A stretch of 64,000 nucleotides of DNA from Candidatus Marinacidobacterales bacterium. Lineage in GTDB: Bacteria; Acidobacteriota; Vicinamibacteria; Marinacidobacterales; DATDRI01. Below are positions 200 through 64,000 of this stretch, piece by piece; position 1 is the stretch's first letter, and every line of letters starts with the position of its first letter. Made by a program: the position numbers and the translations under genes. Under the pieces are notes generated by a model. The model had not been told where the DNA came from and searched no databases. It was given only the letters and a program-made list of their open reading frames with translations. The stretch spans positions 4,192,001 to 4,256,000 of the forward strand of contig CBDCNP010000002.1 of the NCBI GenBank assembly GCA_965219415.1, in the 5' to 3' direction.

Positions 200-355
200 T
201 GTCCCTTCCATAAACTTGAGCTGCATGAGATTGGCAAACTGCCTGCAACCAGGACGGCTTTGGTCGTCTTCATGTAGGACGTTTTGAGAGCCGGCGTCGG
301 CTCTACTCAGGGGTAGAGGTGTAAGCTGGTGCAAAGTCCAGCAGCCGTCCCGAGC
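200..355 (-). repeat. Right terminus (type D, TGTCCCTTCCATAAACT) of an rve-transposase element
   Basis: Reverse-complement match to ~32990-33143, where it follows the transposase C-terminus ...VGGLHHHYTRRAA*. Confidence 0.7.
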
Positions 356-1668
356 TGAACCGCCCCGGGTTTCCCGGAGACTCCACCTCTTGAGAGGATG
401 GAGTCATGACAAGACGAAGGAGGTATTCACCGGAGGTAAAAGAGCGCGCAGTGGGGATGGTTATCGACCAGCAGGCTGAGCAGGAATCTCAGTGGTCAGC
501 GATCTCATCGATTGCGTCGAAGGTTGACTGTACGCGGGAAACGCTACGCACGTGGGTGCGTCGAGCAGAGCGTGATGCTGGGAAACGAGCGGGACTGACG
601 ACGGACGAGGGTCAGCTTGAAGGAGCTTGAGCGAGAGAACCGTGAGCTAAAGGGGGCGAACGAGATCCTTCTCAAGGCGTCGGCGTTTTTCACCCAGGCG
701 GAGCTCGACCGCCGACCGAGGTGAATGTGTTGTTCGTGGACGCGAACCGTGAAAATTAGGGGGTCGAGCCGATCTGCCGGATGCTTCCGCTCGCCCCGTC
801 GACCTATTACGAGCAGAAAGCGAGAGAGAAGGACCCAAGCCGCCTGCCAGCGAGAGCGAAGCGCGACGTCCAACTCCGCGGCGAGATTCGTCGTGTACGG
901 CAAGATAACTTTGACGTGTATGGCGTGCGCAAGGTCTGGCGTCAGCTGTGCCGTGAGGGCCGCGACGTGGCTCGATGCACGGTGGCCCGTCTGATGCGTG
1001 AAATGGGTCTCCAGGGGGCGGTCCGTGGACGTCGATTCAAGACGACGAAGCCGGATTCGAGCGGCGCTCGCCCGATGGACCTCGTGGAGCGCGACTTCAA
1101 CGCCACACGCCCGAACGAGCTCTGGGTTTTCGGACCTGACCTACATCGCCACGTGGCGCGGCTTCGTGTATGTCGCCTTCGTCATCGACGTCTTCGCTCG
1201 ACTCATCGTCGGTTGGCGAGCGACGACATCGTTGACTGTAGGCATCGCTCTCGATGCGTTGGAGCAGGCGCTGCACGAGCGCCGACTAAACCCAGAAGAT
1301 CCATTGGTGCATCACAGCGATCGCGGCGTGCAGTACGTCTCGACCCGTTACACCGAGCGGCTCGCCGAGGCGGGCATTGAGCCGTCCGTCGGCAGCCGAG
1401 GCGACTCTTACGATAACGCTTTGGCTGAATCCATCATCGGCCTCTACAAGACCGAGGTGATCGTCGACGTGGGCCCTGGCGTGGTCTCGAAGACGTTGAG
1501 TTCGCCACCCTCGAGTGGGTCCATTGGTACAACACGCAACGACTCTTGGAGCCGATCGGAAATGTCTCCCCCGTCGAGTACGAGATGAACTACTATCGGT
1601 CGCAGGAAGGCTCGCTAGAGATGGCGAGACTCAACTAAAACAGTCTCCGGAAAACCCGGGGCGGTTCA
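356..1668 (+). mobile_element. IS3-family (IS6110/IS51-like) element with frameshifted orfA/orfB
   Basis: IRs TGAACCGCCCCGGG...CCCGGGGCGGTTCA; orfA HTH and orfB DLTY/HHSDRG/DNALAE motifs split by frameshifts; no TSD. Confidence 0.92.
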
Positions 1669-1950
1669 GGGCGACCCTGTGCCATTGCCAAGAGGAGGCG
1701 TGGGTAGCATCGCCCAGCTAATGCACCGCTCGGCATCCTCAAGCCAACTTGCCGAATCGGGATCCTTAAGCAGGGGTAGTCCAAGCTTGACCAGACAACA
1801 AGGCAAGTCCAACTCCTCCGATAGCTCCGTCCCCAACCAGCGCACGCCCTTTGCTGCGCCCTCAATCGTCCAGGCTGTCACGCACTGAACCATGACCCGG
1901 TGCTCGGGTCCCTGGATGAGCCACCCCACTGCGCCGACCCAAGTGTTGGA
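1666..1950 (-). pseudogene. Diverged 3' fragment of the hypothetical gene at 8835-9476
   Basis: Near-identical peptide GWLIQGPEHRVMVQCVTAW...MLPTPP. Confidence 0.8.
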
Positions 1951-1984
1951 TCGGTGCGGGTACCACGGCGTACCGGGACCCCGG

Positions 1985-2155
1985 CGTCCTGTGCCAAAAC
2001 TTGATCCACTGGCAACATTACAAGCGAACAGTCGATGCGGGCGTGGACGGTGGGGCCCGCGACAACCATGGAGCAGAGCTAGGCCCTTGGCCCGGTCGCA
2101 AACACAGACACTAAGCTGCTGATTTATGGTCTATTTCAAAAGGGCCGAGTTTTGG
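1985..2155. repeat. Mini-element with two type-B termini, right one truncated
   Basis: Starts CGTCCTGTGCCAAAACT, ends ...AAGGGCCGAGTTTTGG. Confidence 0.7.
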
Positions 2156-2896
2156 GGATGTGTCCCGAGGTCCGTGGAAAAAGAACAGCGCCCTCCACTC
2201 CGTCAGGGTATCAGATTAGGCGGCAACCTCCGCGTGTTCGAGAACCTCGCTCAGACGTTGGTAGCCGTCGATGCGTCGTAGTTGAATCTGGCCAGAGGCG
2301 ATAAGCCCAAACAGCAAAGCAACCGCCTGACGGCGCCTATGACCAGGTGCCGATCGCCCGCTCCACGTCGCGCGAACCAAGCCTAGACACCTCTCATCCG
2401 AAACGTCCCGACGCACCGGTCTTGAGTTCGTTTGTGTTTTTGGACACGACGCGGTAGTAGGCTTATCGATCATGGGTTGAACTTCCTGTTCTGCCAAGCC
2501 GGATGGTGCGTAAGCCTCTCTGTTAAAAGGTCATAACGCTGGTCTCATTATGAGGTAGGCTGTAACTTGAGTGGCACACCTTCGACGGCCTGATCCTACT
2601 GATGTTGCTGGACGAACTCGTTCGGCGTCAACTCCGCCGGAGTGGTCGGCCTTGATACTTGTATTCCAGAACGTGGAATGGTTGATAAATGGGTCTTCCT
2701 CTGCTCCTGATGTGTCACCGTGACCCTGCTCTCCGTCTTCTGCAGCACGCTTCCACTGTGTGTGATTTCTCCGCGGCTGATTCGTGTGCTGGGTTCGGAG
2801 GGCGAGTCAGTGCCCGCACTGTTGAAGTGGGTTCGGTTGTTTCGACGCCGGTTCGTCAGCGTTGGTCGAAAGCAGTTTACGATTCCCAATACCGGG

Positions 2897-2951
2897 TGTG
2901 CTCCGCAAAAAGTCGATCCAGCGGTACGCGATCTCTTTTTTGCGGATCACA
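2897..2951. repeat. 55-bp mini-element, type G
   Basis: TIRs TGTGCTCCGCAAAAAG / TGTGATCCGCAAAAAAG; shortened version of the 94-bp copies. Confidence 0.8.
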
Positions 2952-3209
2952 GGTGGTTTCCGCGCACCGACCGGGTAGCGAGCGTGTCGACCGAATCGAG
3001 CTCAGACCAAGGGCAAGGACGAGCGAATGGTGGGCTACATCAAGCACCACTTTTTCGTTCGCTATCGAGAGTTCGTCAGCTGGCAACATCTGAACCAACT
3101 TGCCGAAAGCTGGCTTCGGGAGGAGGCGGACCGTCGAGTCCATGGGACGGTGAAAGAGGTGGTGGCGGAGCGATTCGCAAAGGAGCAACCTCATCTGAGG
3201 CCGCTTCCC
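2952..3209 (+). pseudogene. IS21 IstA transposase internal fragment
   Basis: RAQTKGKDERMVGYIKHHFF...RRVHGT; bounded by G and C termini. Confidence 0.75.
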
Positions 3210-62119: not shown

Positions 62120-62369
62120 GAGGAAATTGTGTCGGGTCGATGGCCTTGGGTTGATTCATGATAGCGCAAACCGGCCTCCTTGCGGAGCTGGTAGCTGCGG
62201 AGGCGCTGCGCCACCTACCGGCTGTGATCCGCAAAAAAGAAGATCGACAAGAAGCAGCCGATCATAGCAGGTCTAAGACGCGCAATCAACGCTGGATAGA
62301 CTTTCTGCGGAGCACAAGGGTCGAGTTTTGGCACAGGACGCGGTCTACCGTTCCGCCGCGGGCACCTCC

Positions 62370-62516
62370 CGTCCTGTGCCAAAACTCGGCCCTTTAGAAA
62401 TAGACCACAAATCAGCAGCTTAGACGCCCTTGGAATCCGCGCAGAATCCAGGGTATTTCGCGCCGCAGGGCTGACTTCCGACCCATGGGCTGGCGAATGA
62501 ATAAATAGAAGGCACA
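62370..62516 (-). repeat. MITE-B copy
   Basis: 147-bp match. Confidence 0.9.
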
Positions 62517-62579
62517 CCTCTACACCCACATCGAGCCGCTTTTGGCCGGTGATGTTCCATTCTTGTGAATAGCCACGAA

Positions 62580-63014
62580 CTAGGTCAGCATCTCCTCGTC
62601 GCTGTAATCCCAGGTGCGAAGTGTTCCCGGCTCGAGACGGATCATCGCAAAGTCGATTTCCTTCATACCATCGGCATAATCGTTTCCTCGAGCCTCACCG
62701 AGATAGCGGATGGCAAGGCGTCGTAGGATGTCGAGGTCGTCAGTCGGGTGCGAAACCTTAGCCTCTCCTCGTATTTCAATGCCCCGATACGGCGGCTGGC
62801 TGTCGGCTACTACGACGGATGCCATGGGGTTATGGTCGAGGTGCCTGGTCTTCACATCCTTTGCGAAGGTCATCACCGTGAACCCGCCGTCCCTGAACTC
62901 GTGCCAGACCGGCGACAACAACGAGTGGCCGTTTTGCATGTGGGTCGCGAGAATCGCCACGGTCGAGCCGGTAAGCAGGTCGCCTAGCTCTTCGGGTTTG
63001 AGGTTCTTGCGCAT
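62580..63014 (-). CDS. Pyridoxamine 5'-phosphate oxidase-like (PPOX class) protein
   Basis: AILAT...SPVW...KTRHL..NP..SVVV...IEIRG; AGGAGG RBS. Confidence 0.8.
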   Translation of the reverse strand: MRKNLKPEELGDLLTGSTVAILATHMQNGHSLLSPVWHEFRDGGFTVMTFAKDVKTRHLDHNPMASVVVADSQPPYRGIEIRGEAKVSHPTDDLDILRRLAIRYLGEARGNDYADGMKEIDFAMIRLEPGTLRTWDYSDEEMLT

Positions 63015-63547
63015 GTCGCACCTCCTGGAAAAAGATAATCTACTCTGTCCTGTGCCAAAACTCGGCTCTTTTGAAATAGACCATAAATCAGCAGCTTAGT
63101 GTTTGTGTTTGCGACCGGGCCAAGGCGGCCCAAGGGTCTTGAGTTCGTTTGTATTCTTGGACACGACGGCCACGTCAGGAACAATTCGGGCTTCATCCGA
63201 GAGCCGTGGCCGTTTCACGGAACGGCGGAGGACGACGAGCTGCTGCCGAAGAGCGACATTCTCAGGAGCCAGCTCGCGACGAGCCTTGAAGCCGGAGATG
63301 AGAGCGGGAACCAACGACGAAATCATGCCGGCATGGTGCTGGCAGACCGGAGATTATTCAAGTTTGGTGCGTGCGGATAAATAAATAGAAGGCACAGGCG
63401 CTTACGCTCCATTTAGCGCGCAGCGAAAGTCGTGAGCGCTATTTGGGCTGTAATTTAATGCACCGTAAAGTCTAGCGTCATCTCACCAACACTTAATGGC
63501 GAAAGCACCGTTCGACGAGTTTCGTCCGTTCTTCGAGAACTATCGGG

Positions 63548-63801
63548 CTATTTCTTGCTCGTCACGCTCGTGATCTTATTCTTCATCGTCTGGCTTCGGT
63601 CGGCACGCGTTCCAAGCTTGATATTCGTATGGATGCGCGGTGCGCCCATTTCGTGGACGACTTCGTGACATCGCTTCACCACGCAAAATACTTCGTCCCA
63701 ATCCCCTTCGATGTTGGTGCCGTTTGCGTGCAGCTCGGGCGATAGCCCCGCGGCTTCTATGACGCGCTCGCAAGCGGCAACGTACTTCGACAGGGAGACC
63801 C
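63548..63801 (-). pseudogene. MTH1187/YkoF thiamine-binding protein, 5' end replaced by a B terminus
   Basis: SLSKYVA...LHANGTNIEG...GAPRIHTNIKLGTR. Confidence 0.8.
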
Positions 63802-64000
63802 CGTCCTGTGCCAAAACTCGGCCCTTTTGAAATAGCCGATAAATCAACAGCTTAGCGTCTGTGTTTGCGACTGGGCCAAGGGCTGTAGGCTCTACAATCG
63901 TCTTGGGCGGACGGGTCGTCACCATGCAGACGACCACCGAGTCGAGAGCGAATATCGAAGCATGTTCCTGAAGCTGTTTCCACGCTACGCCGACCGAGCC
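63802..64000 (-). mobile_element. Right end of another type-B rve element, continuing past the window
   Basis: Matches 5173-5206 plus 6468-6632 without the IS3 insertion. Confidence 0.85.

Follow-up and report, generated by a model that had tools for sequence, protein, structure and literature searches.

Insertion sequences (IS) that move without leaving target-site duplications (TSDs) have been reported for IS26, where, according to extracts of PMC4471558 (He et al. 2015), 0 of 70 copies had matching TSDs, the target halves lay at different copies, and deletions, inversions and fusions were produced; members of the IS1 family also seem to be replicative in the same extracts. In the excerpts of a second study (Ngan et al. 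2024, PMC11708052), IS481 of P. fluorescens SBW25 is found at the centre of a fresh duplication without TSD, IS5 moves without TSD at deletions and duplications in E. coli C, and IS150 makes adjacent deletions. Here, we compare with these systems a stretch of 64,000 nucleotides from the genome of a sponge-associated acidobacterium (positions 4192001-4256000 of contig C3 of genome G000; henceforth the window), in which the termini of an IS1-like family (A), of two rve-type families (R and R2) and of their MITEs (miniature inverted-repeat transposable elements) constitute joints between unrelated DNA. Plain coordinates are window positions, and those prefixed with C3: refer to the contig. A preliminary description of the window had recognised no described system; this was too strong, since TSD-less copies with target halves on different copies are printed for IS26 (extracts of PMC4471558), and TSD-less IS movement for IS481, IS5 and IS150 (excerpts of PMC11708052).

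Element A is 1.2 kb long, has GGTGCTTCCGCC... ends and a single 355-aa open reading frame (ORF) with a zinc finger, and is present in 27-33 full copies. Its transposase scored 82.3 bits against the IS1 model NF033558 (cut-off 100) and 19 bits against DDE_Tnp_IS1 (cut-off 24.1); judged by these scores, A appears to be a distant IS1 relative, 'IS1-like' only. The tips of the 1.2-kb element are common to MITE-A (166 bp; 148-149 full copies; identity about 88-91%), and all forms of A together account for 658 termini in the genome. As the A termini belong to an IS1-like element with its own transposase, the idea that the whole system is driven by rve transposases is not supported.

Element R is 1.43 kb long and of rve type; its inverted ends measure 23 nt (CGTCCTGTGCC...), and its transposase of 381 aa combines an rve_3 core with a helix-turn-helix (HTH). 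The transposase scores below the cut-offs of the IS481, IS3 and IS630 models (IS481, 97.6 bits, cut-off 224; IS3, 79 bits, cut-off 160). R2, present in 50 full copies, measures 1.29 kb, has the ends TGTG...ACA and encodes an rve-type transposase of 349 aa; it also stays below the family cut-offs (IS3, 83.5 bits; IS481, 77.8 bits). The rve_3 domain itself passes its cut-off of 26.5 bits in both cases (39.2 for R, 34.5 for R2). Counting matches to the 23-nt tip at ≤4 mismatches revealed 536 R termini in the genome (1 on contig C1, 35 on C2 and 500 on C3), 29 of them in the window, with only 126 adjacent pairs facing each other as the two ends of one element. A 147-bp R-derived MITE, taken to be the MITE-B of the preliminary description and denoted G150 in the counts, has 70 full copies, shares 54 nt with the R left end and ends in GGCACA on the right. 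In a chimeric 317-bp MITE (R317), an R tip (36 nt) is joined to ~65 nt from the right end of MITE-A and then to an R right end; hybrid-ended elements have thus multiplied, R317 having reached 30 full copies.

MITE-A and MITE-B conform to the definition of a MITE in being short and non-coding and in carrying the terminal repeats of an autonomous element of the same genome; the TSD usual for MITEs was not found at their copies genome-wide. No match to the IS6 model was obtained with the A, R or R2 transposases, the sole IS6 match being a weak one on the IS256 protein. Literature on the IS1 family, on TSD-less or chimeric MITEs and on mobile elements of acidobacteria and sponge symbionts yielded no paper on these elements, which does not exclude that one exists. 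A further terminus type, ..GTTTGTGTTTTTGGACACGACG, occurs at 2409-2455, 3296-3342, 34074-34120, 61205-61251 and 63126-63172; its reverse complement, CGTCGTGTCCAAAAAC.., resembles the R tip, and these termini probably represent a third R-like family.

In agreement with what had been noted before, no TSD and unrelated flanks were found at the seven MITE-A, the seven MITE-B and the three complete rve elements of the window (R at 5173-7861; R2 at 41697-42981 and 51926-53211). The only direct flank match, a 3-bp GGC at R2 41697-42981, is at chance level, and the flanks of R 5173-7861 (gcaccc on the left, gggtgc on the right) are inverted, not direct. The elements named as internal controls likewise proved ordinary: the two IS256-family copies have TSDs of 8 bp (CCTTCCTG; 40026-41424, plus strand) and 9 bp (CCTAGAATG; 53853-55251, minus strand), and the IS3-family element lying in the left end of R (IS3b; 5207-6464, plus strand) shows a 3-bp TAG duplication if its ends are read TG...CA.

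A genome-wide scan for direct repeats of k ≥ 5 at any of 169 offset pairs covered 360 copies in six classes, namely MITE-A (A166, 148 copies), the 1.2-kb A element (A1200, 33), R2 (50), R (R1428, 29), R317 (30) and MITE-B (G150, 70). The best count was ≤2 copies per class, and at any offset it was 0/29 for R1428 and ≤1/30 for R317. With k = 3, no more than 6 of the 50 R2 copies had a repeat at any offset, and with k ≥ 8, none of 149 MITE-A copies had one. Inspection by eye showed TSDs to be absent from the near-identical 1.2-kb A copies (0/27), from a 1.69-kb form (0/10) and from MITE-A copies met by chance in R loci of other genomes (0/11). The same was true of 41 R elements in eight other records labelled Candidatus Marinacidobacterales, which had no TSD and the same flanks, with ACCC preceding the first CG of the element and GGGT following its last CG. 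The short TSD of 3-15 bp to be expected for the IS481 and IS3 families was not encountered at the R and R2 copies. Among the controls, all eight IS256 copies carried a TSD of 8-9 bp (by eye), as did at least 20 of 36 IS3b copies (20 at one fixed offset); the exact-offset counts (IS256, 0-1/8; IS3b, 10/36) were not relied on because the boundaries are off by one base. The absence of TSDs from three families, together with textbook TSDs in two others of the same genome, implies that the difference lies in how the elements move, and the normal behaviour of IS256 and IS3b argues against assembly error or a general scrambling by recombination.

Continuity across the elements was determined by two tests. 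In the colinearity test, it was asked whether both flanks of one copy map side by side elsewhere in the genome. Among copies with both flanks repeated, colinear flanks with a TSD-sized overlap were seen for 6/6 IS256 and 13/21 IS3b copies; a colinear empty site was found for 0/23 R2, 0/13 A1200, 0/14 R1428 and 0/10 R317 copies. The A166 and G150 rows of this test consist of self-hits and were left out. In the paralogue test, an intact low-copy paralogue of a flank shows the sequence that is expected past the junction. At none of the 87 informative flanks of the six A/R/R2 classes did the other side show this continuation; in the controls, it was present for 5/5 (IS256) and 2/6 (IS3b). It was further found that exactly one flank is a high-copy repeat in 35/50 R2, 80/148 A166 and 21/33 A1200 copies, compared with 11/36 for IS3b.

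The earlier statement that interrupted genes do not resume on the other side is thus confirmed by the 87 informative flanks and illustrated by two cases: the second copy of a yfhO gene is truncated 12 codons short of its stop by an R2 tip at C3:4787393, with no resumption, and a 3' fragment of PPK2 adjoins an R2 tip at C3:4494492. Both tests likewise uphold the view that the termini are joints between unrelated DNA and not simple insertions. That the boundaries are termini of rve or IS1-like type does not hold for all of them; others are IS3-type and IS110 elements, a 333-bp MITE with GGTCAAAATACTC ends and unnamed repeats. Flank preferences were evident as ACCC beside R tips and G-S-C beside the right ends of R2 and MITE-B.

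For family A, the stagger of the target cut could be read from half-junctions. The outward flanks of different A tips (658 tips) were reverse-complementary over exactly 8 nt in 67 pairs, compared with 1-26 at shifted controls; six distinct 8-mers were involved that are recurrent or repeat-interior, e.g., within MITE-B and MITE-A, in the R tip and in the 333-bp MITE. When the half-junctions were placed on element coordinates, the overlap that they imply peaks at 8 (18 pairs at three sites), other values between -8 and +15 being represented by 0-2 pairs. This exact overlap implies that strand transfer by A is ordinary, with both ends joined 8 bp apart as in IS1-like transposition, and the value agrees with the 8-9-bp staggered target cut of the IS1 family. 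At these recurrent targets, the halves of an A target lie at different copies and never at the same one. A partner search among the 149 full MITE-A copies gave an excess only from recurrent R-tip targets. One unique-looking partner pair, C3:3075094 / C3:3428983, was treated as chance, as only a 124-aa low-complexity ORF runs across the join.

Genes between the termini ('cargo') recur elsewhere. Many inter-terminus segments have a second copy on C3 (94-99.96% identity) in which the homology breaks off at termini, and many of the 33 low-copy matches of at least 400 bp listed for window cargo elsewhere end at termini as well. The segment 3358-5206, containing lgt and a chalcone-isomerase-like gene, has an inverted second copy (98.97%; C3:4776329-4778175), and the yfhO segment 9721-12565 has a direct one (99.5%); both lie 6 kb apart near C3:4.78 Mb. 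The same cargo thus occurs in other orders and orientations, also in other genomes, as the preliminary description had anticipated. In the yfhO unit, a MITE-A (9722-9887, plus strand) is followed by the gene for a YfhO-like protein (10065-12602, plus strand; 845 aa; match to the YfhO C-terminal family). Its MITE-A junction is kept at ~99% identity in the second G000 copy and in the genomes G002 (same genus) and G003 (another genus), where the unit is 99.3-99.5% identical. The right limit is different in each of the four copies; across the three genomes, the same MITE-A junction is combined with three different right limits.

The cargo at 28211-30514 (plus strand), coding for an Lcl_C-domain protein and PPK2, has a second copy of 99.96% identity at C3:3140154, and its part 28211-30500 is 99-100% identical in G003, G002, G018 and G026, of which the latter two belong to another family. 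More diverged matches to the same part, at 79-87% identity, are taken to be vertical copies. The unpublished genome G007 entered the cross-genome tallies only and carries none of the claims made here. Cut points within this cargo lie at its positions 123, 169 (R tip), 577 (A tip) and 1827 (R2 tip); since one and the same cargo is cut at several internal positions, the units are not cassette-precise. The R tip meets position 169 at two G026 loci and at one G018 locus, and contigs of three runs (three studies) contain this joint too. In one G026 locus (G026:C1:8409313-8412846, ~1380-1510), a 534-bp cargo fragment beginning at the R tip ends at another IS-like sequence, which has an ORF start and the motif GGGATGTGTCCCGAGG, a motif also present in the window at 2156-2172. 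In run X11 (of the runs X11 and X9), one contig covers 24001-24470 and a second one 30776-31338, and each has more than 1 kb that is not on the stretch. In the second contig, this additional DNA has to come after 31338, a position at which the window carries a MITE. Populations that are arranged differently at these joints are thereby suggested. The 99-100% identity of compartment segments between bacterial families points to intense gene exchange in the community.

The compartment in question is evident from the distribution of the elements along the genome (8.05 Mb; three contigs without N; estimated contamination, 8.45%). A, R and R2 termini are nearly confined to C3:2.5-5.69 Mb and C2, and the 2.07 Mb of C1 contain a single terminus each of A and R. 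Of the 31-mers of the window, 51% are found once in the genome, 23% two to four times and 25% at least five times. Across the compartment (C3:2.5-5.69 Mb), 31-mers occurring 2-4 times make up 4-24%, compared with 0.2-4.5% in C3:0-2.25 Mb and C1, where all bins except two have at most about 2%. The skew of guanine against cytosine (GC skew) is uniformly negative in C1 and C3:0-2.25 Mb and about zero in the compartment; its flatness there, against the uniformity elsewhere, fits heavy rearrangement or import. Either the genome is a core with a mobilome compartment, or C1 derives from another organism. The main transposase was found at 94-98% identity in relatives labelled Candidatus Marinacidobacterales, and portions of the stretch are contained in runs titled 'sponge metagenome'. 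The best reading is that the window belongs to a 3.2-Mb compartment saturated with IS elements and MITEs and shared by horizontal transfer.

We favour, with a probability of roughly 0.55, the explanation that the mosaic was produced by unresolved replicative transposition, adjacent deletions and IS-centred duplications within this horizontally shared compartment. A, R, R2 and their MITEs would make new junctions one end at a time and not as two-ended insertions, by a replicative transposition of the Shapiro-intermediate or cointegrate type without a subsequent resolution step. Inside a single chromosome or across sister chromosomes, the outcome would be adjacent deletions and duplications with the IS at the joint; between replicons, it would be fusions. 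Each event would create one new flank and retain an old one, such that no TSD is kept and no gene resumes, and fragments of neighbouring DNA would stay behind between termini as cargo. Adjacent deletions would leave one old and one new flank without a partner, IS-centred duplications would leave an intact paralogue of the new flank, and horizontal exchange among co-resident relatives would supply the same pool. The replicative chemistry, its extension from A to R and R2, and the shares of deletion, duplication and fusion are inferred.

Several observations weigh against this explanation. A pure inversion/cointegrate model predicts a partner for every half-target, yet unique flanks are at chance level: for the 658 A tips, ~5 matched 8-mers were seen among unique-looking flanks versus ~3 expected by chance. 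Most cases would therefore have to stem from a deletion, from a duplication that left the paralogue intact or from a partner lost to another genome. Deletions alone cannot raise the copy number. For R, R2 and the right end of MITE-B, no informative half-site pairs were obtained on element coordinates, and there was no measurable stagger. The rve-type relatives IS3 and IS481 are known for copy-out/paste-in transposition with TSDs. At 28209/28211, the cargo adjoins the inner side of a 20-nt A-tip fragment, and no known outer tip is involved. Contigs of four short-read runs stop ~30 nt into each repeat, and none bridges a whole joint cluster. Finally, the inverted-symmetric flanks of R (ACCC on one side, GGGT on the other) could fit a palindromic target with a hidden 2-bp CG duplication. 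A reservoir of such targets was not apparent in the genome (CCCGTCCGGACGGG, 0 occurrences; ACCCCGGGGT, 5). Joining the two flanks of R copies (93 pairs) gave one spanning match, which is not a simple site, and no TSD beyond the R tip was detected at other offsets. In G000, none of the 41 R elements from other genomes had a colinear empty site. Six readable flank-paralogue rows from five R elements comprise two that share the R junction and four that diverge, none of them matching the other flank of the element.

A tentative alternative, which goes further than the idea of the preliminary description, is that a terminus, even the end of a 150-170-bp MITE, together with a variable length of adjacent DNA forms a mobile unit. 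Transposases working in trans would excise or copy this unit and attach it at another place without TSD, in the manner of a translocatable unit or of one-ended capture, and would thus carry gene-sized cargo around the compartment, within and between genomes and between bacterial families of one host. Such joining of an end plus cargo might conceivably be the transposase-based counterpart of integron or IS26 cassette traffic, carried out by an IS1-like and two unclassified rve-type families, a proposition that we regard with comparable reserve. It would account for identical tip-cargo junctions in different contexts, such as the MITE-A/yfhO junction at two G000 loci and in G002 and G003, or the R tip/169 joint at two G026 loci, in G018 and in contigs of three runs. 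In addition, a paralogue with an identical tip and junction exists for 53 flanks of A tips and for 40 of R tips, the two-family chimeric R317 is multi-copy (30 copies), and many cargo genes are complete single genes. However, no TSD pair surrounds any composite of two A tips, and the all-pairs test is at chance for unique flanks. The cargo limits are, moreover, intragenic and vary between copies, and an IS-centred duplication or the transfer of a larger block would give the same junction duplicates. No circular form was seen, nor was there a means of looking for one.

It is unlikely that the elements inserted normally with TSDs and that RecA recombination among copies, including those on incoming foreign DNA, subsequently exchanged the flanks. 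Copies are abundant enough for this (658 A tips, 536 R tips), elements are flanked by segments 98-100% identical to genomes of other species, and some junction partners are present at recurrent targets. Yet IS3b, which at 1.26 kb and 36 full copies is a better substrate for recombination than the 166-bp MITEs, has retained its TSD in at least 20 of them and has empty sites, whereas TSDs were not retained across the 360 copies of the A, R and R2 families (≤2/N per class), including young near-identical 1.2-kb copies. Reciprocal exchange would also retain the partner halves, and for unique flanks these are at the level of chance.

Quite improbable is a scenario in which the elements are pasted into DNA breaks arising from rearrangement or repair, where no target is cut and neither a stagger nor a TSD results. 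It has been proposed for IS481 and IS5 (excerpts of PMC11708052) and would conform with the lack of a measurable stagger for R and R2 and with joints such as 28209/28211 that have no outer tip. The exact 8-bp overlap of the A half-junctions, by contrast, denotes a staggered cut made by a transposase, and the flank preferences at R, R2 and MITE-B ends would not be expected of random breaks. An origin of the joints in faulty metagenome assembly or binning at repeats is scarcely credible. In its favour, the genomes of the relatives were assembled from metagenomes, contamination of G000 is estimated at 8.45%, C1 is nearly free of these elements, and the short-read contigs end within the repeats as stated above. 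Such artefacts would, however, also affect IS256 and IS3b, which are both intact; identical junctions recur within G000, in other genomes and in contigs of independent runs; and the 8-bp overlap, like the flank preferences, is a signature of biology.

The ordinary genes of the window are separated by very many repeats. Complete genes include lgt, the chalcone-isomerase-like gene, the YfhO-like membrane protein, a serine hydrolase (Beta-lactamase Pfam family), a Ser/Thr kinase with PD40 repeats, a BNR/sortilin protein, two amidohydrolases, PPK2, a BCCT transporter, an M20 peptidase, a PIN protein, a flavocytochrome and a Spondin_N protein. Starting from the left, an IS3-type element occupies 201-1672 (plus strand) with rve/HTH_21 ORFs at 781-1380 and 998-1588; it belongs to a ~47-copy repeat, its ends are approximate, and with the chosen boundaries there is one full copy. 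A solo R terminus (3344-3380, minus strand; R-tip match) faces the lgt/chalcone-isomerase-like cargo (3393-5062). The complete R at 5173-7861 (plus strand), interrupted by IS3b, has its 381-aa transposase at 6663-7808 on the minus strand, and it is followed by a 166-bp MITE-A with IS1-like ends (7874-8039, plus strand) and, directly after it, by an A-element fragment (element positions 3-246; 8040-8283, minus strand). At 9646-9721 (plus strand), only the first 76 nt of the R left end are present, truncated by the MITE-A of the yfhO unit, beyond which the R sequence does not continue. Directly after the yfhO gene lies the 333-bp MITE (12603-12935, plus strand; 13-bp ends GGTCAAAATACTC), which belongs to another IS family and, with the chosen boundaries, has one full copy. 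Many genomes of the order contain its two halves (92-97% identity) separated by ~1 kb, and it is probably a deletion derivative of a widespread IS. A 399-aa ORF at 15125-16324 (plus strand) has an HNH domain and a weak IscB-like match; with about 8-14 relatives in G000 and many more in the same-genus genome G001 (72-85% identity), it may represent another mobile gene family.

The joint cluster at 24471-25785 is composed of an R2 fragment (24471-24863), two R left-end fragments (24864-24979 and 24977-25098), a partial MITE-B (25290-25410), a MITE-A abutting an R tip (25411-25576) and a solo R tip (25763-25785). Next to the PPK2 cargo, the A-element left end (positions 1-135) is followed by the 20-nt A-tip fragment, whose inner side is against the cargo (28055-28209, plus strand), and the cargo is bounded on its right by a MITE-A (30515-30680, plus strand). 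A 147-bp MITE-B (31339-31485) and a MITE-A (32647-32812), both on the minus strand, precede the first 103 nt of a chimeric R/A MITE (34567-34669, plus strand), which abuts an alcohol-dehydrogenase ORF apparently truncated at its 3' side. The complete R2 at 41697-42981 (plus strand) encodes its 349-aa transposase at 41784-42833, and a MITE-B lies at 47975-48121 (plus strand).

A MITE-A (48362-48527) and an A-element fragment (48528-49038), both on the minus strand, lead to an IS110-family element (49039-50505; transposase at 49369-50445, minus strand), which has 28 full copies in the genome, with a 358-aa transposase (another at G000:C3:3049296-3051986). Most of 12 copies inspected have ..gtagcaaca on one side and an A-type terminus at the other end, and ten 1.69-kb units with A tips contain the element; by these positions, it looks like an element that targets A-family sequence site-specifically. 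A 21-nt R tip stands against the second complete R2 (51926-53211; together 51905-53211, minus strand). MITE-B copies at 55401-55547 and 57355-57501 (both plus strand) enclose a unique segment (55609-56880), in which the gene of a PIN-domain protein (56392-56880) comes directly after a 258-aa ORF without Pfam match; the two may be a toxin-antitoxin-like pair. Further to the right, a chimeric R/A MITE fragment (58175-58306) overlaps a MITE-B (58301-58448, minus strand), and a MITE-A (60441-60606) is followed at once by the first 72 nt of R2 on the minus strand (60441-60679 in all). Two more MITE-B copies (61024-61171 and 62370-62516, plus strand) precede the end of the window; the latter has, together with the following cargo (62370-63803), a second copy of 99.86% identity at C3:2977294. 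The window closes with the start of a complete R (63802-64000, plus strand) that extends to C3:4257230.

In comparison with known systems, the likeness to an integron, as put forward initially, could not be maintained beyond the general appearance of unrelated gene-sized segments that are lined up and horizontally shared. No Phage_integrase (PF00589) match lies in the window, which in a search of the whole genome had none of the 13 matches, the nearest on C3 being at 2.87 and 5.48 Mb. By contig, 11 of these 13 matches are on C1 and two on C3. There is thus no tyrosine integrase in or near the window, the cuts are inside genes, and the mapped joints are termini of A, R, R2 and other IS on both strands instead of a common recombination site; no common attC-like site was seen among them, and no search with an attC model was made. 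ISEcp1 and IS91/ISCR are alike in that one conserved end carries a variable length of adjacent DNA. ISEcp1 units are bracketed by TSDs, and IS91 lacks terminal inverted repeats and uses an HUH enzyme; neither the TSD bracketing nor the IS91 pattern was found here.

Element A shares with IS1 the GGTG... terminal repeats, a transposase with zinc finger and DDE domain, the 8-9-bp stagger and deletions that start exactly at the IS end. It differs in its single 355-aa ORF, which at 82 bits stays below the 100-bit cut-off, and in copies without TSD, whereas IS1 of E. coli commonly has 9-bp TSDs. With IS481, IS5 and IS150, as far as the excerpts of PMC11708052 go, the window shares an rve-type IS placed where a duplication or deletion is joined, without TSD and with one new and one old flank. 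Those are single laboratory events, whereas every copy of three families, with several hundred junctions, is of this kind here, and the products are shared between species.

TSD-less copies are usually dismissed as decayed or recombined, and IS and MITE finders that are based on TSDs would miss these families or set their bounds wrongly. The genome provides a natural test case for the deletion, duplication and dispersal of adjoining genes through replicative or one-ended activity of IS1-like and rve-type transposases. New are the scale, which includes every copy of three families, the rve-type families and MITEs acting as joints, the 3.2-Mb chromosomal compartment and the near-identical cargo across bacterial families.

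The analogies with IS26 translocatable units and adjacent deletion that were drawn at the outset fit. As with IS26, no copy has a matching TSD pair, and at recurrent targets the 8-bp halves of A lie beside different copies; fusions, inversions and deletions by IS26 give, in the extracts of PMC4471558, mosaics of resistance or cargo segments between copies. In contrast to IS26, the transposases are not of the IS6 family, A being a distant IS1 relative and R and R2 rve-type, matched partner halves are rare outside recurrent targets, and the joints, most commonly non-autonomous MITEs, are spread over a chromosomal compartment of several megabases. We conclude that the region works like IS26 arrays combined with IS1 adjacent deletion, without belonging to those families.

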